A stretch of 64,000 nucleotides of DNA, taken from UHGV virus genome UHGV-1351569, one strand, 5' to 3'. Position numbers and translations under genes: made by a program. How positions within the stretch are numbered: the stretch's first letter is position 1; each line of letters begins with the position of its first letter. The DNA comes from a virus. The notes under the pieces are model-generated. The model searched no databases, was not told where the DNA came from, and worked only from the letters and a program-made list of their open reading frames with translations. This document shows positions 15,497 to 50,438 of this stretch, piece after piece.

Positions 15497-17751
15497 TTAA
15501 TGTTATCAAAAGTAGTGGTGTTTCTCAGAGCTTTGACCCGCAAAAAATTATTAAAGTTTTATCTTGGGCAGCTGAAGGAACATCTGTAGATCCTTATGAA
15601 TTATATGAAAATATTAAATCATATCTCCGTGATGGAATGACCACTGATGACATTCAGACTATTGTCATTAAGGCTGCTGCGAATTCTATTTCAGTTGAAG
15701 AGCCTGATTATCAATATGTAGCTGCACGCTGTTTAATGTTTGCTCTTCGTAAGCATGTTTATGGGCAGTATGAACCACGTTCATTTATTGACCATATTTC
15801 TTACTGTGTAAATGAAGGTAAATATGACCCTGAATTATTGTCAAAATATTCAGCAGAAGAAATTACATTTTTAGAATCAAAAATTAAGCACGAACGGGAT
15901 ATGGAATTTACTTATTCCGGGGCGATGCAATTAAAAGAAAAATATCTAGTTAAAGATAAAACCACTGGTCAAATTTATGAAACTCCACAGTTTGCATTTA
16001 TGACTATTGGAATGGCACTGCATCAAGATGAACCTGTTGATAGATTAAAACATGTTATCCGTTTTTATGAAGCAGTATCTACTCGACAGATTTCATTGCC
16101 AACTCCTATTATGGCTGGTTGCCGTACTCCAACTCGACAGTTTAGTTCATGCGTTGTTATTGAAGCAGGTGATTCGCTGAAGTCTATCAATAAGGCTTCT
16201 GCTTCAATTGTTGAGTATATTTCTAAACGAGCTGGAATCGGCATTAACGTTGGTATGATTCGTGCCGAAGGTTCTAAGATTGGCACAGGTGAAGTACGCC
16301 ATACTGGTGTTATTCCTTTTTGGAAACATTTTCAGACTGCAGTTAAATCATGTTCACAGGGTGGAATTCGTGGCGGCGCTGCTACTGCTTATTATCCTAT
16401 TTGGCATTTGGAAGTTGAAAATCTTCTCGTTTTGAAAAATAACAAAGGCGTAGAAGAAAACCGTATTCGTCATATGGATTATGGTGTTCAGCTGAATGAT
16501 TTGATGATGGAACGATTCGGAAAGAACGATTACATTACTTTGTTCAGTCCGCATGAAATGGGTGGCGAGCTTTATTATTCTTATTTTAAAGACCAAGACC
16601 GTTTCCGTGAATTATACGAAGCAGCAGAAAAAGACCCTAATATTCGTAAAAAGCGTATTAAAGCTCGTGAACTATTTGAATTGCTCATGACTGAACGTTC
16701 AGGAACAGCAAGGATTTATGTGCAGTTCATTGATAATACGAATAACTATACTCCATTTATTCGTGAAAAGGCACCTATTCGTCAGAGTAACTTGTGCTGT
16801 GAAATTGCTATTCCAACAAATGATGTGAATAGTCCTGATGCTGAAATTGGATTGTGTACGTTATCTGCATTTGTGTTGGATAACTTCGATTGGCAAGACC
16901 AAGATAAAATTAATGAATTAGCAGAAGTTCAAGTTCGCGCTCTTGATAATCTTTTGGATTACCAAGGATATCCAGTTCCTGAAGCAGAAAAAGCTAAAAA
17001 GCGTCGAAATCTTGGTGTAGGTGTTACTAACTATGCAGCTTGGCTGGCAAGTAACTTTGCTTCTTATGAAGATGCTAACGATTTAACACATGAACTATTT
17101 GAGAGATTACAGTATGGACTCATCAAAGCATCCATTAAGCTCGCCAAAGAAAAAGGACCTTGCGAATATTATTCAGACACTCGTTGGTCTCGAGGCGAAT
17201 TACCTATCGACTGGTACAATAAAAAGATTGACCAAATCGCAGCTCCAAAATACGTTTGTGACTGGTCGTCGCTGCGGGAAGACCTTAAGCTCTTTGGCAT
17301 CCGTAATAGCACATTATCAGCACTTATGCCATGTGAGTCATCTTCCCAAGTTTCTAACAGTACAAACGGTATCGAGCCTCCACGTGGACCAGTCTCTGTT
17401 AAAGAATCAAAAGAGGGTTCCTTTAATCAAGTCGTGCCCAATATTGAGCATAACATAGACCTCTATGATTATACGTGGAAATTAGCTAAGAAAGGTAATA
17501 AACCTTATCTTACGCAAGTAGCTATTATGCTTAAATGGGTATGTCAATCAGCTTCAGCGAATACATATTATGACCCGCAGATTTTTCCAAAAGGAAAGGT
17601 TCCAATGTCAATAATGATTGATGACCTTTTGTATTTTTGGTATTTTGGCGGAAAAAATTTCTATTATCATAATACCCGTGACGGTTCTGGTACTGATGAT
17701 TATGAAATAGAAACTCCAAAAGCTGAAGATTGCGCAGCGTGTAAATTGTAA
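15487..17751 (+). CDS. nrdA: ribonucleotide reductase large subunit
   Basis: 754 aa (T4 NrdA length); N-terminal ATP-cone region, active-site cysteines (NLCCEI...). Confidence 0.95.
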   Translation: MQLINVIKSSGVSQSFDPQKIIKVLSWAAEGTSVDPYELYENIKSYLRDGMTTDDIQTIVIKAAANSISVEEPDYQYVAARCLMFALRKHVYGQYEPRSFIDHISYCVNEGKYDPELLSKYSAEEITFLESKIKHERDMEFTYSGAMQLKEKYLVKDKTTGQIYETPQFAFMTIGMALHQDEPVDRLKHVIRFYEAVSTRQISLPTPIMAGCRTPTRQFSSCVVIEAGDSLKSINKASASIVEYISKRAGIGINVGMIRAEGSKIGTGEVRHTGVIPFWKHFQTAVKSCSQGGIRGGAATAYYPIWHLEVENLLVLKNNKGVEENRIRHMDYGVQLNDLMMERFGKNDYITLFSPHEMGGELYYSYFKDQDRFRELYEAAEKDPNIRKKRIKARELFELLMTERSGTARIYVQFIDNTNNYTPFIREKAPIRQSNLCCEIAIPTNDVNSPDAEIGLCTLSAFVLDNFDWQDQDKINELAEVQVRALDNLLDYQGYPVPEAEKAKKRRNLGVGVTNYAAWLASNFASYEDANDLTHELFERLQYGLIKASIKLAKEKGPCEYYSDTRWSRGELPIDWYNKKIDQIAAPKYVCDWSSLREDLKLFGIRNSTLSALMPCESSSQVSNSTNGIEPPRGPVSVKESKEGSFNQVVPNIEHNIDLYDYTWKLAKKGNKPYLTQVAIMLKWVCQSASANTYYDPQIFPKGKVPMSIMIDDLLYFWYFGGKNFYYHNTRDGSGTDDYEIETPKAEDCAACKL

Positions 17752-18392
17752 TGAATTATCAAAAAATTTATAACGACCTAATTTCCCGAGCTCAGGCTCG
17801 GGAACCTTTATCCGAATATAAAGAGACTCATCATATAATCCCTAGATGTATGGGAGGTTCTGATGATAAAGAAAATTTAGTTGAATTAACAGGTAGAGAG
17901 CATTTTATAGCTCATTGGCTTTTATGCAAAATATATGACACCCCAGGATTAAAGAAAGCTTTTGGTTTAATGTGCTTGACTGGTAAAAATCGCTCATATA
18001 AAATTTCTTCTCAACTATACGAATTAGGTAGACGACGTTTATCTGAAGCTGCTATAGGACGTGAAGTTTCTATAGAAACCAGGGAAAAGATAAGTAGAGC
18101 TCTTAAAGGAAGGAAATTTACCAAAGAGCATTTAGCTCGCATGAGAAAACCTAAAACCGAAGAAGCTAAAAAGAATATAGCTGCTGCTAAAGTCGGCGTG
18201 CTTAATCCGATGTATGGTACAATCTCTCCGACAAGAGATGTTCCTCATACTAAAGAAACTCGTGATTTGATTTCTTTGAGAACTAAGCAAAGTATAGAGT
18301 ATCCGCCTTGTCCGCATTGTGGCAAGAAAGTTAATAAAGGCAATGCTCTAAGATGGCATTATGATAAATGTAAATTTAAGGATTCTAAATGA
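17751..18392 (+). CDS. mobE: HNH homing endonuclease, MobE-like
   Basis: 213 aa; ETHHIIPRCMGGSDDKENLVELTGREHFIAH (HNH motif) plus repeated basic NUMOD-like motifs; sits between nrdA and nrdB as T4 mobE does. Confidence 0.8.
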   Translation: MNYQKIYNDLISRAQAREPLSEYKETHHIIPRCMGGSDDKENLVELTGREHFIAHWLLCKIYDTPGLKKAFGLMCLTGKNRSYKISSQLYELGRRRLSEAAIGREVSIETREKISRALKGRKFTKEHLARMRKPKTEEAKKNIAAAKVGVLNPMYGTISPTRDVPHTKETRDLISLRTKQSIEYPPCPHCGKKVNKGNALRWHYDKCKFKDSK

Positions 18393-41622: not shown

Positions 41623-42742
41623 TTTTAACCTTAACTGGGTCTATTGTTTCCAGTTTCGTTGCATTAGTGAACATATATAGATGAGTTACTGAATTATTAT
41701 TTGATAATTCATGGATGACTTCATCAACGTAAAATTCTGTTTTAAATTGGTTTTTACTATCGTTAAAAATAATTTTAACGCCAGGAGTCAAGTTAAAATT
41801 ACCGACAGTAGAACATTTAGCATAACCATCGTATTGTGCCATAGTTTGAAGACGAATAGCTTCTTCATATCCATTCCTATAAGTCATTTCAGAATAAGCA
41901 CCTGACCTTGATACTACAATAGAGTTTTCGCCCTTTCCCGTAGTAATCATTGGCAATGAAGAATCTAAAAATGAATGAGCATAGATAGTAGCATTTTTCA
42001 TTGGGTCACGTTTGTGAGGATTCGATTTAGTCAACCAAACGAAATCATATGCTAATGGGTATTTTAATTCTTGGATGAATTGACCTATTAAAGATGGCTC
42101 ACCGACAATCATTGGATATGGTTCTTGATTTATCATCATATCATAGTCCATCATGTTAACTCCCATGATGTCTTGCCACACAAATACAAATTTGTCACTT
42201 CCTACAGCTAGAGCAACTTCTCTGACATATGACAAATAGTTTTCAAATGTGCTAGTCCACGGAATATCAGGAACATAAGCATTTATAGCATTTATTGCTG
42301 GAGTTAATAATGTGCGATCTTGATAAATGACACCAAGCATTTCCTTTATAGATTCACCTGCATCAGAGAAAAACGGTCTGCCAAATTTAAGATTTTCTAT
42401 AGAATGAATAGTTCCCAATTCAATAGCAATGATGTTATCACCCTTTGAATCTACAGATACAGAAAAATGCTTACATCCATAAATTCGTGTTTTAACATTA
42501 TTAATATCGTTTGCATTAGCTACAGAAATCTGAATTATTTCATTTCCATCCATTTTTGTATGGATATTTTTAGAATCATAAAACTGCAGCATTCCTTCAT
42601 TTCGGCCATAAAGAGAATCCCGCATAGTTAATGTGGTAATAGTAGCAGCTAATTCAACAAATCTATTATTACTCCAAGCGTCGTAGCTATCAAATAATTT
42701 AACGCTGAGATTTGGATATCCTGGGCGTTGCAACATACTCAT
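41567..42742 (-). CDS. 27: baseplate hub subunit gp27
   Basis: 391 aa [28 protein letters not shown]... Confidence 0.93.
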
Positions 42743-44632: not shown

Positions 44633-45232
44633 ATGAAATTAGTACATTATTGTTACTTAACTAAAATTATTCATAATGATAAAATTAGACTATACTTTGG
44701 CAAACACTCAAGTAGATGTGGATTAGATAATAATTATATAGGTTCTGGCAAGTTTATTAAAAGCGCAAGAAAAAATCCAGAAGTAAAATTTGAGAAAACA
44801 GTACTTTGTGTCTTTGACACAAAAGAGCTCAATGCCGAGTTTGAAAATTTATTAGTATCTGAAGCTAAAGAAAAATTTGAAAACTGTGTTAATATAGCTG
44901 AAGGTGGAATTGGTGGTAAAACTTGGGGAAATAATCCACATCCGATGCAAGGAAGACGCATGCCAGCTTCGGAAGATAGAAAAGCTAAAATATCTGCTAC
45001 GATGAAAGATAAATTTTCAAATCAAATTCATTGGGCTAAAGACGTCGATAGACCAAGCAGACGTAGTTCTCGCATTCCATGGGAACACTATGATGCTCTT
45101 TATAATCTTTGGGTAAATAATAATTTTCCTAAACGCGGGAGTTTTAATAAACTTGCAAAAACGCATGGATATCCTGCTGTAGATTATGCTGGTATGGTTA
45201 TTAATTTTATGAGGAAACGTGATGAGACTTGA
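44633..45232 (+). CDS. Seg-like protein, degenerate GIY-YIG homing-endonuclease fold (putative)
   Basis: 199 aa; N-terminal HYCYLTKIIHNDKIRLYFGKH...NNYIGSGKF resembles GIY...YIG spacing; basic C-terminal region. Confidence 0.55.
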   Translation: MKLVHYCYLTKIIHNDKIRLYFGKHSSRCGLDNNYIGSGKFIKSARKNPEVKFEKTVLCVFDTKELNAEFENLLVSEAKEKFENCVNIAEGGIGGKTWGNNPHPMQGRRMPASEDRKAKISATMKDKFSNQIHWAKDVDRPSRRSSRIPWEHYDALYNLWVNNNFPKRGSFNKLAKTHGYPAVDYAGMVINFMRKRDET

Positions 45233-45635
45233 AGAGTTACAGGAAGAATTGAAGAAAGATGTGTTTATAGATTCGACTAAATTACAGTATGAAGCAGCTA
45301 ATAATGTGATGTTATATAGTAAATGGCTTAATAAGCATTCAAGTATTAAAAAGGAAATGCTTAGAATTGACGCACAGAAAAAAGTTGCTCTTAAAGCTAA
45401 ATTAGACTACTACTCGGGACGAGGAGATGGTGATGAATTTAGTATGGATCGTTATGAGAAATCAGAAATGAAGACAGTTCTATCGGCTGATAAGGATGTT
45501 TTAAAAGTTGATACTTCATTACAATATTGGGGAATTTTATTGGATTTCTGTAGCGGAGCTCTTGATGCTATTAAATCACGCGGATTTGCTATTAAGCATA
45601 TTCAAGACATGCGAGCATTTGAGGCTGGAAAATAA
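45222..45635 (+). CDS. uvsY: recombination mediator UvsY
   Basis: ATG 45222 gives 137 aa MRLEELQEELKKDVFIDSTKLQYEAANNVMLYSKWL... Confidence 0.95.
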   Translation: MRLEELQEELKKDVFIDSTKLQYEAANNVMLYSKWLNKHSSIKKEMLRIDAQKKVALKAKLDYYSGRGDGDEFSMDRYEKSEMKTVLSADKDVLKVDTSLQYWGILLDFCSGALDAIKSRGFAIKHIQDMRAFEAGK

Positions 45636-45859
45636 TGAAATATAGCATTGATGATGCTTTTAATTATGAAGAAGAATTTGAAACGGAAATTCAATTCTTA
45701 ATGAAAAAGTATAATCTCAAGCGTCAGGATATTCGTATCCTGGCCGACCACCCATGCGGTGAAGATGTACTTTATGTTAAAGGAAAATTTGCCGGATATC
45801 TTGATGAATATTTTTATTCCAAAGATATGGGCATTGATATGCATATGAGAGTTATATAA
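45635..45859 (+). CDS. hypothetical protein
   Basis: 74 aa ORF; start overlaps uvsY stop. Confidence 0.6.
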   Translation: MKYSIDDAFNYEEEFETEIQFLMKKYNLKRQDIRILADHPCGEDVLYVKGKFAGYLDEYFYSKDMGIDMHMRVI

Positions 45860-45887
45860 ATAGATATATAATTCAGAGGAGACAATC

Positions 45888-46037
45888 ATGTCAGATAAGA
45901 TTTGTGTTGTCTGTAAAACTCCAATCGATTCTGCATTGGTTGTTGAAACAGACAAAGGTCCTGTACATCCTGGGCCTTGTTATAATTACATTAAAGAACT
46001 ACCAGTTTCAGAAAGTTCGGAAGAACAATTAAATGAA
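45888..46037 (+). CDS. possible small Cys-containing protein (49 aa)
   Basis: ATG 45888 with SD AGAGGA 7 nt upstream; MSDKICVVCKTPIDSALVVETDKGPVHPGPCYNY...; hand-translated. Confidence 0.35.
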
Positions 46038-46079
46038 ACACAACTTTTGCTATAGTGTGACCTTTAGTCTATAGTTTTG

Positions 46080-46113
46080 GCCCTTCCTTTTTGGTTGGGC
46101 CTTTTTTAATTTA
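46080..46113 (+). terminator. hairpin terminator
   Basis: GGCCC-(13 nt loop)-GGGCC followed by TTTTTTAATTT. Confidence 0.6.
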
Positions 46114-46341
46114 AAAGCTTTCTTCTACTTCATCGTCTGAATCTTCTAATTCAGCTCTTTTTCCTGCCAAAGCATCTCTCACAGAGATGTCATCAGTATC
46201 TTTTAATTCAGTTTCTTTAACTCTTTTCTTATAATAAGCTTCAAGTTCTTCTAGACCTTCTAATGTTTGGCAAGAGGCAATTTTACCCATAAATTCATCA
46301 ATAGAAGCTTCATAAAGAAATTGTTTAAATTCTAGTAACAT
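46111..46341 (-). CDS. uvsW.1: UvsW.1-like small acidic protein
   Basis: ATG at 46341 gives 76 aa MLLEFKQFLYEASIDEFMGKIAS...; SD GGAG upstream; track ORF starts at an upstream TTG. Confidence 0.65.
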   Translation of the reverse strand: MLLEFKQFLYEASIDEFMGKIASCQTLEGLEELEAYYKKRVKETELKDTDDISVRDALAGKRAELEDSDDEVEESF

Positions 46342-46366
46342 CTTTTTCTCCAAAGGGCCGAAGCCC

Positions 46367-47059
46367 TTATAAATTAACTGTTTTTCTAAGTATTCTTAGT
46401 TTGTACATTGATAATCCAGTAGCTTTAGAAGCATCTTTCATACATTTATACTTAACACCATTTACTTCTATAGGTTTAGCAGCTGGGTTATTAGCTCCTG
46501 AATTATCTGGCATGTTATCTTTAATTTTCTGAATAGATTTAGCGGAATGTTTCCTTCCATACATGCCGTTATTTTTACCCGATTGATTGATTGAATGTAA
46601 TCTTTTAGCTTCTTCAGTCCATTTCGTTGGGTTCATTCTTTTAGTTTTACTAATTTTATTTCCCCATGTAATTGGACGACTTTTCATGAGTTTTGACATA
46701 TATTGTTTATGTTCTTCCGTGTGGTGTTTTCCGTAAAATGGATTACCTTCGCCGGATTGAAGTTCTGCCATTTTACGACGTTCCCATGCGTAAGATTTAT
46801 TGACGTGTCTTTCATGAGTATTTGAATTCATCCCCATACATATAACAGCTTTAATTATACCGTAATGGTTTGGATGAATTTTAGCTAAAAGTTTATGGGC
46901 TATAAAATGTTCTTCAGCCGTTAGTTCTACTAAATTACACTTATCATTTGTACCACCCATACATCTAGGAATTATATGATGTGTTTCAGTGTATCCATTA
47001 AGGCGAGCCCGATTCTGGGCTCTATTAATTAAATTATCATATATTAATTTATAATTCAA
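46367..47059 (-). CDS. HNH homing endonuclease (Mob-like) between uvsW and uvsW.1
   Basis: 230 aa MNYKLIYDNLINRAQNRARLNGYTETHHIIPRCMGGTNDKCNLVELTAEEHFIAH; NUMOD-like motifs; apparent TTG start overlapping uvsW TGA. Confidence 0.75.
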   Translation of the reverse strand: MNYKLIYDNLINRAQNRARLNGYTETHHIIPRCMGGTNDKCNLVELTAEEHFIAHKLLAKIHPNHYGIIKAVICMGMNSNTHERHVNKSYAWERRKMAELQSGEGNPFYGKHHTEEHKQYMSKLMKSRPITWGNKISKTKRMNPTKWTEEAKRLHSINQSGKNNGMYGRKHSAKSIQKIKDNMPDNSGANNPAAKPIEVNGVKYKCMKDASKATGLSMYKLRILRKTVNL

Positions 47060-48567
47060 AGTTTAACCTCTTTCATCACATAATTAAACTTTTCATCAGC
47101 ATAACGCTGAATACGATCAAGTCCATGTTTTAAAAGATAGTTTAAATGCGAGTATTTTTTAGAAGATGTTTTTGATTTAGAAACTACGCCCGCGTCATCT
47201 ATGAGGTCCCAGACCGTTGCGATTGTTTTAGAACCATGCTTACGTAATACGCGACCTATTGTTTGCAATACAATAATTTTAGATTTAACACCGTGTGCTA
47301 AAACGACGTGATGCAGATTTTTAACTGAAATACCAGTAGAAAATACACCATAACTAGCTACTATAATTATTCCTTTACCGTTTTCAGCTAGGGTTTTCAT
47401 TACGTTGCGTGTTTCGGTATCAACTTCCCCTGATACGTAATAAACTTTATCGTATTCATTTTTAATTAAATCGAAAATAGCTTTACCGTGCGATACGTGT
47501 TTAAACATGACAAAAGCGTTTTCATCTTTTTGTGCAAGCTTAATAGCTAATTTAGCGATCCATTTATTTCTTTTACTGAGTCCAGTAATAATTTTTATTT
47601 CTTCTTGGTAAGTTTTTCCCTTTAATTTAGTAGTGAACTCATCAGGATAACGAAGAAAAATACTATTAATTTTTAACTCAGTTACTTGTCCATCTTCCAT
47701 TAATTTAGAAGTCGTTACTGGCTTAAATATTTCACCAAACATTCCAACATACTGCATGATATTAGCTTTGCCATCACGTAATGAACCCGATAGACCAAAT
47801 TTGAACATGCAGTTATTTAAACCTGATATGATAGATGAAATACTTTTTCCTGTAGCAAGATGGCATTCATCATTCATCATCATTCCAAACTGTGAGAACC
47901 ATTCTTTTGGTTGTTTAACTACAGTTTGCCATGTACCAACAACGACCGGTGCATCATTTTTATATTTATCATCTTTTGATGCTCCGCCACCAATTTTCTT
48001 TATCATTGCATGACTGAATAAACGATAGTCAACAAAGTCATCAGCCATCTGAGTTGTCAAAGCAGTTGTTGGAACAATGATAAGAATTTTACCTTCATAA
48101 TTTTCCAAATAATATCGCGCAAGCAAAGCCTGAATTAAAGATTTACCGGCGGATGTTGGAAGATTAAGAATTCTACGACGATTAACTAATCCTTCGAACA
48201 CTGCATCTTTTTGATACCAGTGCGGTTCAATTCTTTTATTTCCTGAATAGATTTCTAATTTAGAAAGCCATTCATCAAAATCTTTTCTTGATAATTCTTC
48301 TTTTTCGTTAATTTGTGGGTCAATCCAGGCTTTATAGCCAAAGTTATCACAGAACTTTTTAATTTGCCCGACTAAGCCGAATGGAAGAAGACGATTATAA
48401 TCTAAAAGACGGATTCGTCCATCCCAGTTGCCATATCTGTACTTCGGATTAAAACGATACCCATCAGCTTCAAAGCTAAAGAAATCACGGAGTTCATGAA
48501 ATGTACTTTCTTCACAATCAATTCTCACGTGACTAAAATCATAAAAATGTACTTTAATGTCAGTCAT
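47056..48567 (-). CDS. uvsW: UvsW helicase
   Basis: 503 aa (T4 UvsW length); Walker A region LPTSAGKS, DECH box. Confidence 0.95.
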   Translation of the reverse strand: MTDIKVHFYDFSHVRIDCEESTFHELRDFFSFEADGYRFNPKYRYGNWDGRIRLLDYNRLLPFGLVGQIKKFCDNFGYKAWIDPQINEKEELSRKDFDEWLSKLEIYSGNKRIEPHWYQKDAVFEGLVNRRRILNLPTSAGKSLIQALLARYYLENYEGKILIIVPTTALTTQMADDFVDYRLFSHAMIKKIGGGASKDDKYKNDAPVVVGTWQTVVKQPKEWFSQFGMMMNDECHLATGKSISSIISGLNNCMFKFGLSGSLRDGKANIMQYVGMFGEIFKPVTTSKLMEDGQVTELKINSIFLRYPDEFTTKLKGKTYQEEIKIITGLSKRNKWIAKLAIKLAQKDENAFVMFKHVSHGKAIFDLIKNEYDKVYYVSGEVDTETRNVMKTLAENGKGIIIVASYGVFSTGISVKNLHHVVLAHGVKSKIIVLQTIGRVLRKHGSKTIATVWDLIDDAGVVSKSKTSSKKYSHLNYLLKHGLDRIQRYADEKFNYVMKEVKL

Positions 48568-48596
48568 GTCTAAATACCATGTAATAAATATATCTA

Positions 48597-48604
48597 TATT
48601 TATA
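48597..48604 (-). promoter_or_regulatory. late promoter TATAAATA for uvsW
   Basis: Plus-strand TATTTATA about 30 nt upstream of the uvsW ATG. Confidence 0.6.
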
Positions 48605-48617
48605 CTGAGGAAATATT

Positions 48618-49298
48618 ATGATAGATAAAGATTATATTGCAGAGCTGAAGGCTCTTGATGATAATAAAGAAGCTAAAGCTAAATTAGCTGAATATGCTGA
48701 ACAGTTTGGTATAAAGGTCAAAAAGAATAAATCTTTTGATAATATCGTTAATGATATTGAAGAAGCCCTCCAGAAGCTCGCTAGTGAACCTATGCCAGAG
48801 ACTGATGGGTTATCTATTAAAGACTTAATTGATGCTGCTGATGCCGCAGACGGATTAAAATATGACGATGAAGAAGTCAATCCAGAGGCAGCACTTCTGA
48901 TTGATTCTCCGGTTAAATCTGACATTAAAATTGAAGTAGTAGAAATGGATAAAATTCCTGAAAATACTGATGTTTTGATTGAAGACACTCCTTTTGTTGA
49001 AGAAAAATTCGAGCAGGCTGTAGCTGAGATTATTGAATCTGAAAAGCCGTCTATATTTACTCTTCCGGAAAACTTTAGCCCGAATCTTCAGCTGATTGGA
49101 AAAAATCCAGGATTCTGTACTGTTCCTTGGTGGATTTACCAGTGGATTGCTGAAACTCCGGATTGGAAATCTCACCCAACTAGTTTTGAACATGCGTCAG
49201 CACACCAAACTTTATTTAGCTTAATTTATTACATTAATCGTGATGGATCAGTTCTAATTCGTGAAACACGCAATTCTTCTTTCGTAACATTAAAATAA
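48618..49298 (+). CDS. inh: Inh-like protein (inhibitor of prohead protease), acidic
   Basis: 226 aa ORF at the T4 inh position upstream of hoc; assignment by size and position only. Confidence 0.6.
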   Translation: MIDKDYIAELKALDDNKEAKAKLAEYAEQFGIKVKKNKSFDNIVNDIEEALQKLASEPMPETDGLSIKDLIDAADAADGLKYDDEEVNPEAALLIDSPVKSDIKIEVVEMDKIPENTDVLIEDTPFVEEKFEQAVAEIIESEKPSIFTLPENFSPNLQLIGKNPGFCTVPWWIYQWIAETPDWKSHPTSFEHASAHQTLFSLIYYINRDGSVLIRETRNSSFVTLK

Positions 49299-49307
49299 GG
49301 ATAACTT

Positions 49308-50438
49308 ATGGCTTTTACAGTTGATATAACTCCTAAAACACCTACTGGAGTTATAGATCAGACTCAGCAGTTTACTGCTACACCCAGTGGTCAAACTGGA
49401 GATGGACCTATTACATATGCTTGGACTGTAGATGATGTTCCACAAGATGGAGCTGAAGCAACTTTTAATTATGTATTAAAAGGACCTGCCGGTCAAAAGA
49501 CTATTAAAGTAGTTGCAACAAACCCAGTTCCAGATACTGATGCTGAAACAGCAGAAGCTACTACAACTATCACAGTTCAAAATAAGACACAGACAACTAC
49601 CTTAGCTGTAACTCCTGATAGTCCTGCTGCTGGAGTGATTGGAACTCCTGTTGAATTTACTGCTGCTTTAGCTTCTCAACCATCAGGCGCATCTGCTACG
49701 TATCAATGGTATGTTGATGACTCTCAGGCTAGTGGGGAAACTAACTCTACATTTAGCTATACTCCAACTACAAGTGGAGTAAAAAGAATTAAATGCATAG
49801 CTCAAGTAACAGCGACAGATTACGATACAAAAGAAGTTACTTCTAATGAAGTATCATTAACAGTTAATAAGAAGACAATGAATCCACAGGTTACATTGAC
49901 TCCTCCTTCTATTAACGTTCAACAAGATGCTTCGGCCACATTTACTGCTAATGTCACTGATGCTCCAGAAGAAGCGCAAATTGAGTATTCATGGAAGAAA
50001 GACTCTTCTCCTGTAGAAGGATCGACTAATGTGTATACAGTTGATACCTCATCTATTGGAAGTCAAACTATTGAAGTTACTGCAACTGTTACCGCTACTG
50101 ATTATGATAGCAAAACTATCACAGCAGAAGGTCAAGTTCAGGTAACTGATAAAGTTGCTCCGGAACCAGAAGGTGAATTACCTTATGTTCATCCTCTTCC
50201 ACATCGTACTTCAGCTTATATCTGGTGCGGTTGGTGGGTTATGGATGAAATCCAAAAAATGACTGAAGAAGGTAAAGATTGGAAAACTGACGATCCAGAT
50301 AGTAAGTACTACTTGCATCGTTACACTCTTCAGAAGATGATGAAAGACTATCCAGAAGTTGATGTTCAAGAATCGCGCAATGGATACATCATTCATAAAA
50401 CTGCTTTAGAAACTGGTATCATCTATACCTATCCATAA
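49308..50438 (+). CDS. hoc: highly immunogenic outer capsid protein Hoc
   Basis: 376 aa MAFTVDITPKTPTGVIDQTQQFTATPSG...; repeated Ig-like modules, conserved capsid-binding C-terminus. Confidence 0.93.
   Translation: MAFTVDITPKTPTGVIDQTQQFTATPSGQTGDGPITYAWTVDDVPQDGAEATFNYVLKGPAGQKTIKVVATNPVPDTDAETAEATTTITVQNKTQTTTLAVTPDSPAAGVIGTPVEFTAALASQPSGASATYQWYVDDSQASGETNSTFSYTPTTSGVKRIKCIAQVTATDYDTKEVTSNEVSLTVNKKTMNPQVTLTPPSINVQQDASATFTANVTDAPEEAQIEYSWKKDSSPVEGSTNVYTVDTSSIGSQTIEVTATVTATDYDSKTITAEGQVQVTDKVAPEPEGELPYVHPLPHRTSAYIWCGWWVMDEIQKMTEEGKDWKTDDPDSKYYLHRYTLQKMMKDYPEVDVQESRNGYIIHKTALETGIIYTYP

Follow-up and report, generated by a model that had tools for sequence, protein, structure and literature searches.

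A predicted Mob-type HNH homing endonuclease gene with a TTG start codon between uvsW and uvsW.1 of a T6-like phage

The window analysed is a stretch of 64,000 nt of the UHGV virus genome UHGV-1351569. An ORF of 230 aa was found on its minus strand between the helicase gene uvsW and uvsW.1. The range 46341-47100 given in the initial annotation contains this ORF, but also spans the ATG of uvsW.1 and the 3' end of uvsW. The following features were distinguished, all of them on the minus strand except the last:

46111..46341, minus strand: uvsW.1, 76 aa from the ATG at 46341, Shine-Dalgarno sequence GGAG at 46351-46348
46353..46368, minus strand: AAGGGC-UUCG-GCCCUU stem-loop of the C(UUCG)G type, a hairpin native to the intercistronic uvsW/uvsW.1 region and outside the insert
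46367..46381, minus strand: former uvsW end ACAGTTAATTTATAA (TVNL*), reused in its original codon phase to close the endonuclease ORF with final codons and stop
46367..47059, minus strand: ORF of a predicted Mob-type free-standing HNH homing endonuclease, 230 aa, TTG start, TAA stop, same ends as in T6 RefSeq
46382..47070, minus strand: insertion relative to the insert-free Tequatroviruses T2, T4 and OES_C-3, 689 nt, boundary ambiguous by 3 nt (AAA)
46400..46780, minus strand: residues 94-220, comprising the NUMOD3 repeats and a DNA-binding region resembling that of I-TevI
46892..46993, minus strand: HNH nuclease core, residues 23-56, with H27, H28, N42, H51 and H55
47005..47022, minus strand: internal stem-loop GAGCCC-AGAAUC-GGGCUC, spanning nt 38-55 of the ORF and located where T4 mobE has its internal terminator hairpin
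47056..47128, minus strand: recoded uvsW 3' end with mostly synonymous changes and the new tail EVKL*, travelling with the insert
47056..48567, minus strand: uvsW helicase gene, 503 aa, the upstream host gene and probable target gene
47057..47059, minus strand: putative TTG initiation codon, overlapping the uvsW TGA (47056-47058) as TTGA
47066..47070, minus strand: Shine-Dalgarno sequence GAGGT, the first bases of the insert, doubling as codons E-V of the new UvsW tail
48597..48604, minus strand: match to the T4-type late promoter consensus TATAAATA, ~30 nt ahead of uvsW
17751..18392, plus strand: mobE paralogue between nrdA and nrdB, 213 aa, its ATG overlapping the nrdA stop

The assignment as a Mob-like HNH homing endonuclease, proposed initially from the letters of the sequence, agrees with the homology searches. 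The ORF matched PHROG 655 'homing endonuclease' with an E-value of 4e-60 in an alignment starting at residue 1, which together with its conservation in 49 phage records places it beyond chance. The HNH core ETHHIIPRCMGG..NLVELT..EHFIAH is present as it had been described, and the residues H27 H28, N42 and H51/H55 of the H-N-H motif are invariant across 8 homologues. Profile matches to the HNH regions of McrA (E 5.5e-4), a group II intron maturase and Cas8f-HNH were obtained; as a single sequence, the Pfam HNH score was 16.2 bits, below the cut-off of 21.4. An AlphaFold single-sequence model, untrustworthy at a pLDDT of 42, shows residues 30-32 and 42-44 as strands and 48-61 as a helix, compatible with a beta-beta-alpha fold. 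By its motif, the ORF is an HNH (beta-beta-alpha-metal) nuclease for which metal-dependent cleavage or nicking of DNA is predicted. The NUMOD-like repeats mentioned in the initial annotation are NUMOD3 (PF07460, E 7.6e-14, 51.8 bits against a cut-off of 20.4) in two stretches, and residues ~153-220 match the I-TevI DNA-binding domain (PDB 1I3J/1T2T, profile E 2.8e-5).

The second mob gene of the window belongs to the same PHROG 655. BLASTP between the two proteins gave an E-value of 1e-32 at 39% identity overall, and tblastn of the 230-aa protein against the T4 nrdA/mobE locus gave 42% identity. Close paralogy over the first ~60 aa, as claimed, was confirmed: 42/60 residues are identical and the alignment starts at residue 1. 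The two copies are indeed inverted and ~29 kb apart, but the identical runs of more than 20 bp attributed to them do not exist, the longest exact run being 14 nt (CCTAGATGTATGGG). The inverted repeat between them covers 117 nt at 76% identity; hence, the sequence offers no basis for an inversion between the two genes. What looked like a third mob start at 41696-41712 was discarded as a chance 17-nt match in a 391-aa ORF without mob similarity. The label 'mobD' for the gene in PST is unsupported, since the closest T4 paralogue is MobE.

Comparison of the uvsW/uvsW.1 junction in related phages, which had been suggested as a check, revealed a precise presence/absence difference of 689 nt. The insert is found in 49 Tequatrovirus records out of 502, including T6, whose record is already annotated with this TTG start; the span measures 1501 nt in carriers versus 812 nt in insert-free Tequatrovirus records. 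Beyond this genus, coverage of the carrier query reaches at least 80% in ~9 records of Dhakavirus and 13 of Jiaodavirus, while sampled relatives are insert-free, and overall the insert occurs at the uvsW/uvsW.1 boundary in five genera. Only two close loci were obtained in an IMG/VR scan, which was therefore of little use for a survey of start codons. All seven Tequatrovirus copies fetched contain the intact ORF of 230 aa, and in 49/49 carriers the DNA aligns over its full length with an identity of at least 97%. Diverged copies differ by 19-21 synonymous and 4-5 non-synonymous substitutions; dN/dS is 0.04-0.05 in three comparisons with ~20 synonymous differences, and lower or not estimable in comparisons with few differences. 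By these counts the ORF is under strongly purifying selection, and since dN/dS is ~0.05 or lower, the protein is probably made. In the genomes compared, the gene stands alone between conserved genes and is sporadic, with clean absences in other close relatives, as expected of T-even Mob endonuclease genes; Dhakavirus and Jiaodavirus show this pattern as well. Literature searches found no paper on this particular endonuclease; Petrov et al. 2010 only counted the mob-like genes of T6.

The insertion point lies 15 nt before the uvsW stop codon, where the insert-free junction of T2 reads TACGTAATGAAA followed by ACAG. The cassette opens with 15 nt, GAG GTT AAA CTT TGA, that replace the UvsW tail and hold the GAGG(T) Shine-Dalgarno sequence; insert-free alleles lack GAGGT and have ACAGT, CAGGT or ACGGT instead. 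The displaced uvsW tail of 15-18 nt, (K)TVNL*, is read by the endonuclease ORF, which reuses the old uvsW stop. Because the ORF reads through the old tail to the old stop, the native UUCG hairpin and the ribosome-binding site of uvsW.1 are untouched. The same arrangement of a recycled tail exists in Dhakavirus and Bragavirus. Upstream of the insertion, the recoded 73-nt uvsW end has an identity of at least 95% in exactly 49 records, i.e. the carriers, versus 90% or less in all others. Divergence from OES_C-3 is asymmetric, with 10 mismatches over the final 80 nt before the insert and 0 over the first 240 nt after it. The flanking uvsW polymorphisms are thus, on comparison of these records, linked to the endonuclease gene, as a signature of either co-conversion or immunity. 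Recoding is not strictly required for self-immunity, because the carrier UP19 retains the insert-free TACGTA flank. Genome comparison thereby establishes the anatomy of the locus, i.e. boundaries, replaced and recycled tails, recoded flank, start position, conservation and purifying selection.

Two RNA structures were considered. The gene had been described as ending exactly at a GGGC-UUCG-GCCC hairpin; its stop does directly abut GGGCTTCGGCCC, but this is not a terminal signal of the gene itself, because hairpin and the last 18 nt of the ORF together constitute the original uvsW end and junction. The same hairpin occupies the equivalent position in insert-free T2, T4wild and OES_C-3. It folds with -13.9 kcal/mol (z = -1.6), was not reported in a terminator pattern scan and is followed only by UUU before GGAG. 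An intrinsic (rho-independent) terminator, for which a GC-rich stem plus a U-rich tract was demanded, was consequently rejected. A further stem-loop inside the ORF at nt 38-55 had not been mentioned initially. In eight of nine related genes, no other 30-nt fold along the gene is as stable, although the stem sequences differ, and the IMG/VR scan found it in some distant Mob-like genes, not in all. Its role as a terminator is doubtful, because a U tract is missing.

The sequence around the start reads cTTTGAatt, so TTG overlaps the uvsW TGA as originally noted, and the GAGG Shine-Dalgarno sequence located in the coding end of uvsW was found at 47070-47066, 6-7 nt upstream of TTG. An in-frame TAA precedes TTG by two codons, and the first ATG to follow is codon 34, past the catalytic His; judged from the reading frame, TTG is the only usable start of the ORF. 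Orthologous insertions in four other genera use TTG, GTG or ATG at the same codon, always as NTGA over the uvsW stop. The stretch of 36 nt with Shine-Dalgarno sequence and TTG is identical in 49/49 carriers. The family-invariant residues M1 N2 Y3 Y7 L10 I11 begin at the TTG codon, and the predicted N-terminus of the protein is (f)Met-NYKLIYDNLINR. Initiation at TTG, as first proposed, is therefore supported by comparative evidence. The GAGG motif is present in TTG and GTG alleles and absent from the two ATG alleles, a small sample. Sequestration of the ribosome-binding site as in I-TevI or Aeh1 mobE was rejected: the centroid fold leaves Shine-Dalgarno sequence and TTG unpaired, and MFE pairing is weak. 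An RF2-like +1 frameshift at CUU UGA producing a UvsW-endonuclease fusion was rejected as well, since the +1 frame GAA UUA UAA stops after two codons and the endonuclease is in the other frame.

The late promoter consensus upstream of uvsW is the sole exact match on this strand within 45500-49500. Between this promoter and the endonuclease, exact TATAAATA was not found; near-matches of 7 out of 8 positions lie inside the ORF at 47053..47047 and 46450..46444. T4 endonucleases often overlap the upstream gene (PMC2988022). The endonuclease would be read from the uvsW late transcript, with low-level translation through termination-reinitiation at UUGA, and the stem-loop at nt 38-55 may act as a further brake by analogy with mobE. 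By homology to MobE, the enzyme would nick or cut uvsW near its 3' end in a co-infecting relative that lacks the insert, and repair would then copy the cassette and the recoded flank into this relative. Overall, we consider it probable that the window derives from a T6-like Tequatrovirus in which a MobE-like HNH cassette of 689 nt sits in the uvsW 3' end, with expression coupled to uvsW and spread by homing.

It is plausible that weak initiation at TTG limits the expression of a toxic nuclease, as had been suggested; this would fit the literature on T4 endonucleases (PMC2988022), but because of translational coupling, the choice of the start codon may also be neutral. TTG would then be the real start, while expression is mainly set by coupling and ATG, GTG and TTG drift. 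We regard this as a serious possibility of somewhat less than even probability: the start codon takes its first base from the wobble position of the last UvsW codon (CTN / TTR / ATH), hence from a synonymous site, all three canonical starts occur in orthologues at the same position, and low downstream expression has been attributed to coupling itself (PMC2988022). Drift is opposed by the invariance of TTG in the 49 Tequatrovirus copies and by its presence in all three Dhakavirus carriers examined, even though two of them carry an orthologue of 59% identity and the third, Bp7, an endonuclease of only 28%. The distribution of GAGG over the alleles, while small as a sample, resembles compensation. 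Much less can be said for the ORF being a decaying or silent relic, in which ATG mutated to TTG and a functional endonuclease is no longer encoded. The non-ATG start would suit this, defunct endonucleases such as I-TevIII are known in T4 (PMC2790892), and 4/49 carrier GenBank records have no endonuclease CDS annotated over the TTG region. Against it stand the intact and near-identical copies, the low dN/dS, the invariant HNH residues and the persistence of TTG in two genera, so that a relic appears very improbable.

The records without a CDS could also reflect a shorter protein, started at the ATT of codon 11 or the ATG of codon 34, given that gene callers and annotators sometimes avoid TTG. 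However, the product from ATG34 would lack the catalytic H27/H28 and thus the nuclease base, the invariant N-terminal motif falls within residues 1-13, the Shine-Dalgarno sequence is spaced for TTG, and both the PHROG 655 and the MobE alignments begin at residue 1; this reading has next to no probability. Finally, the insertion itself might have created the split between uvsW and uvsW.1, like mobE in Aeh1 nrdA or mobA in T4 gene 39/60, and later have been lost from most phages. Its position at this boundary in five genera and the ATGA overlap of uvsW and uvsW.1 in insert-free Dhakavirus and Jiaodavirus would be explained thereby. Yet a HMMER search with UvsW.1 among 1.84 billion representative proteins gave no helicase with a C-terminal UvsW.1; the matches were stand-alone proteins of 40-145 aa, four of 287-295 aa with an N-terminal domain and one weak match in a 523-aa protein. 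Moreover, two ORFs are present in all T4-like genomes examined in PMC1524935, and the T4 uvsW/uvsW.1 'fusion' is a sequencing error. Such an origin of the split is hence highly unlikely.

Beyond the probable MobE-like cassette, a more general reading is offered tentatively and is rather unlikely to hold in full: a 'gene-end replacement' cassette conserved in at least five T4-like genera, with recoded end, tunable NTG, reused tail and stop, and compensated stem-loop. The recoded end of the host gene may give both self-immunity and a strong Shine-Dalgarno sequence, and the NTG start may sit on the wobble base of the last host codon. Reuse of the displaced host tail and stop may let the translation signals of the downstream gene survive. 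The stem-loop ~35 nt into the ORF may be kept by compensatory change though it dictates the local amino acids, and it may be a family-wide regulatory RNA or DNA element with a role other than simple termination.

For annotation, the TTG start should be used and the UUCG hairpin should not be assigned to the endonuclease gene. The locus is a clean natural example of a selfish endonuclease gene placed within the final codons of a core gene of replication and repair, harming neither uvsW nor uvsW.1. As the start codon begins at a silent uvsW site, versions with ATG, GTG, TTG and CTG can be compared while UvsW remains unchanged.

The locus represents an uncharacterised member of the known Mob endonuclease family and no new kind of system. 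T4 MobE is promoterless, co-transcribed, has an internal terminator hairpin and nicks its target (Wilson & Edgell 2009, PMC2790892). Like MobE, with which it shares 39-42% of its residues overall and 70% of the first 60, the ORF has an N-terminal HNH domain, NUMOD3, no evident promoter of its own, a sporadic occurrence among close relatives, a start codon that overlaps the stop of the conserved gene before it and a stem-loop ~30 nt into the coding region. It differs in its insertion site and presumably its target (uvsW 3' end versus nrdB), in the I-TevI-like DNA-binding region of its C-terminal half, in TTG versus ATG and in a hairpin without a U tract; further, the cassette lies within the last codons of the host gene and supplies a replacement tail, and its activity is predicted from sequence. 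I-TevI shares the DNA-binding domain, but its catalytic domain is GIY-YIG and it is intron-encoded, in contrast to the free-standing HNH enzyme here. SegE, a T4 GIY-YIG endonuclease at inh/uvsW, targets uvsW (PMC2988022 Table 1). Both are free-standing endonucleases flanking uvsW, and T6 has both (segE is absent within the 64-kb window), but they belong to different nuclease families, with SegE at the 5' end of uvsW and this gene at the 3' end. MobA is the sole T4 free-standing endonuclease predicted to have a non-AUG start (GUG). Accompanied by the gene 60 bypass element (Bonocora et al. 2011, cited in PMC10236363; see also PMC2988022), it is likewise a Mob cassette with altered adjoining host sequence. 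Unlike MobA, which splits a topoisomerase gene, the cassette described here leaves uvsW whole and exchanges only its last four codons and stop.

The source of the window is a T6-like Tequatrovirus. Its stretch 46000-47500 was matched by 502 phage records, 49 of them end to end at 97-99% (T6, PST, G8, HY03 and others). The following features were considered:

48604..48597, minus strand: T4 late promoter, exact consensus match TATAAATA, ~30 nt ahead of uvsW
47056..48567, minus strand: uvsW, 503 aa, UvsW_N and helicase domains
46367..47059, minus strand: endonuclease ORF, 230 aa, between uvsW and uvsW.1
47022..47005, minus strand: stem-loop GAGCCC-AGAAUC-GGGCUC, ORF bases 38-55, -13 kcal/mol for the region
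ATG at 46341, minus strand: uvsW.1, 76 aa, PF11637 (E 1.7e-30)

The 230-aa ORF is a real Mob-type homing endonuclease gene, correctly recognised as a Mob-like HNH gene in the initial annotation. The protein carries the HNH core ETHHIIPRCMGG..NLVELT..EHFIAH and two NUMOD3 stretches (E 7.6e-14), and it falls into PHROG 655 'homing endonuclease' (E 4e-60), as does the mobE of the window (17751..18392, plus strand). The C-terminal region matched the I-TevI DNA-binding domain with E 0.006 as a single sequence and with E 2.8e-5 when a profile built from eight homologues was used. The structure model was of unusable quality. In the T6 RefSeq record, the gene is annotated 'homing endonuclease' with identical ends, including the TTG start. 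Other carriers label it 'mobD' (PST), 'group I intron endonuclease' or 'hypothetical', and the GenBank records of four carriers (ESh30, ESh36, FL08 and W143) contain no endonuclease CDS over the TTG region. A literature search did not find a paper characterising this uvsW-site endonuclease. The gene is already known as an annotation in T6 and relatives; the details added here, the anatomy of the cassette and the conserved hairpin inside the ORF, are modest.

Paralogy with mobE from codon 1 was confirmed: the proteins are 39% identical (E 1e-32), and the alignment begins at residue 1; over the first 60 residues, 42 positions are identical. The two mob genes indeed lie about 29 kb apart in inverted orientation and have a 117-nt stretch in common (76% identity). 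The claim of identical runs of more than 20 bp is incorrect: exact identity between them extends over 14 nt at most and, therefore, the proposed inversion between the copies has no sequence basis. A further ORF of 199 aa (44633-45232, plus strand) lies between gene 25 and uvsY, where T4 and T6 have no gene. It matched PHROG 314 'homing endonuclease' (E 8e-19). Its N-terminus is GIY-YIG-like, but a Pfam search gave no match. The gene segE, which T4 and T6 carry between inh and uvsW, is absent from the window, whose endonuclease gene set is therefore unlike that of T6. The inh-uvsW gap (48568-48617) comprises about 50 nt and contains a late promoter.

The uvsW/uvsW.1 junction was compared in related phages, as had been recommended, and clean insert-free alleles were found. 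In T2, T4 wild (KJ477684) and OES_C-3, the junction reads ...GTAATGAAA ACAGTTAATTTATAA GGGCTTCGGCCCTTTGGAGAAAAAGATG..., in the order UvsW tail (TVNL-stop), hairpin, uvsW.1 Shine-Dalgarno (SD) and ATG. In the window it reads ...GTGATGAAA [ GAGGTTAAACTTTGAATTAT ... CTTAGAAAA ] ACAGTTAATTTATAA GGGCTTCGG..., where the outer brackets enclose the insert. The insert spans 47070..46382 (689 nt, boundary ambiguous by 3 nt) and is located 15 nt ahead of the original uvsW stop. Its first 15 nt encode a new UvsW tail (EVKL-stop) and include the endonuclease SD, whereas the endonuclease ORF terminates through the displaced uvsW tail, in the original codon phase and at the old uvsW stop; the phase is kept because the TTG has a frame offset equal to 689 mod 3. 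As described, the endonuclease TAA directly adjoins GGGCTTCGGCCC, but this GGGC-ttcg-GCCC hairpin is not the gene's own end: judged from the insert-free alleles, the native junction consists of the UUCG hairpin together with the translation signals of uvsW.1, and both are foreign to the endonuclease gene. A pattern scan and fold prediction did not give a terminator pattern for the hairpin. C(UUCG)G hairpins are reportedly an intercistronic feature of T4 mRNAs.

The same cassette design recurs, by sequence comparison, in other genera. In the insert-free Dhakavirus IME281, the uvsW end is ATGAAACAGGTGGATTTATGA, followed directly by uvsW.1; in the Dhakavirus carrier PSD2002, uvsW ends with ATGAAAGAGGTCCAAATTTGA and the endonuclease ORF with the identical 21-nt ATGAAACAGGTGGATTTATGA. 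KEVKL-stop ends both uvsW and the endonuclease in Bragavirus PM2, and in Jiaodavirus the repeat has shrunk to CTATGA.

That the insert caused the split between uvsW and uvsW.1 was considered and rejected, for no helicase with a C-terminal UvsW.1 emerged when all 1.84 billion representative proteins were scanned with UvsW.1 as query. Matches were mostly stand-alone proteins of 40-145 aa, and one weak match lay within a 523-aa protein. Four proteins of 287-295 aa (P0022-P0024 and P0026) have an N-terminal UvsW.1-like domain, an architecture not seen in T4-like phages. The old sequence of the T4 RefSeq record NC_000866 (3170-3195 of the fetched locus L002) shows both genes fused as a 587-aa ORF, which is a known sequencing error; T4 wild and T2 have the uvsW stop and the full GGGCTTCGGCCC hairpin.

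Initiation at TTG is well supported by comparative sequence evidence. The TTG (47059-47057) overlaps the uvsW TGA (47058-47056) by two bases, and the SD GAGG(T) was found at 47070-47066, both as initially annotated. A TAA two codons 5' of the TTG prevents the ORF from beginning further upstream, and the next ATG in frame is codon 34, past the catalytic His27/His28. At this site, four genera besides Tequatrovirus have orthologous genes, which start with TTG in Dhakavirus (PSD2002, UP19 and Bp7), GTG in Bragavirus PM2, and ATG in Gualtarvirus Rgz1 and Jiaodavirus pzk-kv6-1; each overlaps the uvsW stop as NTGA. The variable first base is the wobble base of the last UvsW codon, free to vary without changing UvsW; nevertheless, none of the lineages seen has C there. 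Residues M1, N2, Y3, Y7, L10, I11 and R13 are invariant among the uvsW-site endonucleases and mobE, and the 36 nt covering SD, TTG and the first six codons are 100% identical in 49/49 Tequatrovirus carriers. Diverged Tequatrovirus copies show 19-21 synonymous versus 4-5 non-synonymous changes (dN/dS ~0.05); therefore, the reading frame is translated and under selection. GAGG is present upstream of the TTG and GTG alleles and absent from the two ATG alleles, which in this small sample hints at compensation. An RF2-like frameshift at CUU UGA was dismissed, as it yields a two-codon extension only. The suggestion that a weak start limits a toxic nuclease is a plausible, putative regulatory rationale.

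The closest phage lacking the insert is OES_C-3. Relative to it, uvsW shows 10 differences over its final 80 nt, and the first 240 nt of the downstream flank show none; outside the replaced tail, all uvsW differences but one are synonymous. The recoded 73-nt uvsW end is ≥ 95% identical in exactly the 49 carriers and ≤ 90% in every other record and, therefore, travels with the insert. No 'footprint' alleles were seen among the matching records. Just 5' of the insertion point (window 47077-47088 and homologous positions in the fetched loci L003-L006 and L088-L096), 4/4 insert-free alleles from three genera have TAC GTA ATG AAA, while 6/7 carrier lineages have TAT followed by GTG, GTC, GTT, ATC or ACT, the exception being UP19. 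This difference is a lead towards a candidate recognition or immunity determinant. The uvsW of OES_C-3 is of carrier type at first but changes to T2/T4 type some 70 nt ahead of the insertion point, which suggests a recombination breakpoint beside the insertion site.

The late promoter ahead of uvsW is the only exact consensus on the minus strand between 45500 and 49500, and a scan for sigma-70-type promoters gave background level only. For these reasons, the best reading is that the endonuclease would be co-transcribed with uvsW from the late promoter and translated through reinitiation at UUGA. Fold prediction did not find convincing sequestration of SD and start codon. Two 7/8 late-promoter matches lie within the ORF on the minus strand, TATAAATT just after the TTG (47053..47047) and TATAAATG about 100 nt ahead of uvsW.1 (46450..46444).

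In mobE and all uvsW-site endonuclease genes examined, the coding region contains a stem-loop about 30-38 nt from its start (e.g., window 47005-47022, minus strand; window mobE 17782-17804; fetched loci L090, L092, L093 and L006). More distant Mob-like genes have it in some cases only. When 30-nt folds were compared over the whole length of each gene, the most stable one began at nt 24-38 in 8/9 related genes (window endonuclease, HY03, window mobE, Jiaodavirus, two Dhakavirus, PM2 and Rgz1); in the ninth, Bp7, the fold at this position is second best by 0.2 kcal/mol. Stem sequences differ, e.g., AGAAGCC-GAAA-GGCUUCU and GAGGCCUU-AAAA-GAGGCCUC, and the protein is variable here, even palindromic (RGLKRGL); therefore, selection acts on the nucleic-acid structure.

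The T4 mobE hairpin at the corresponding position is an intrinsic terminator of 30-50% efficiency (PMC2790892), whereas most versions in the genes studied here have no U tract, which leaves their role uncertain. All free-standing T4 endonucleases have predicted AUG starts except mobA, with GUG, and the T4 mobE/nrdA overlap UAAUGA has been read as translational coupling holding expression low (PMC2988022). The mobE gene demonstrably lacks a promoter and is co-transcribed with nrdA (PMC2790892); the probable co-transcription of the uvsW-site endonuclease with uvsW would parallel this.
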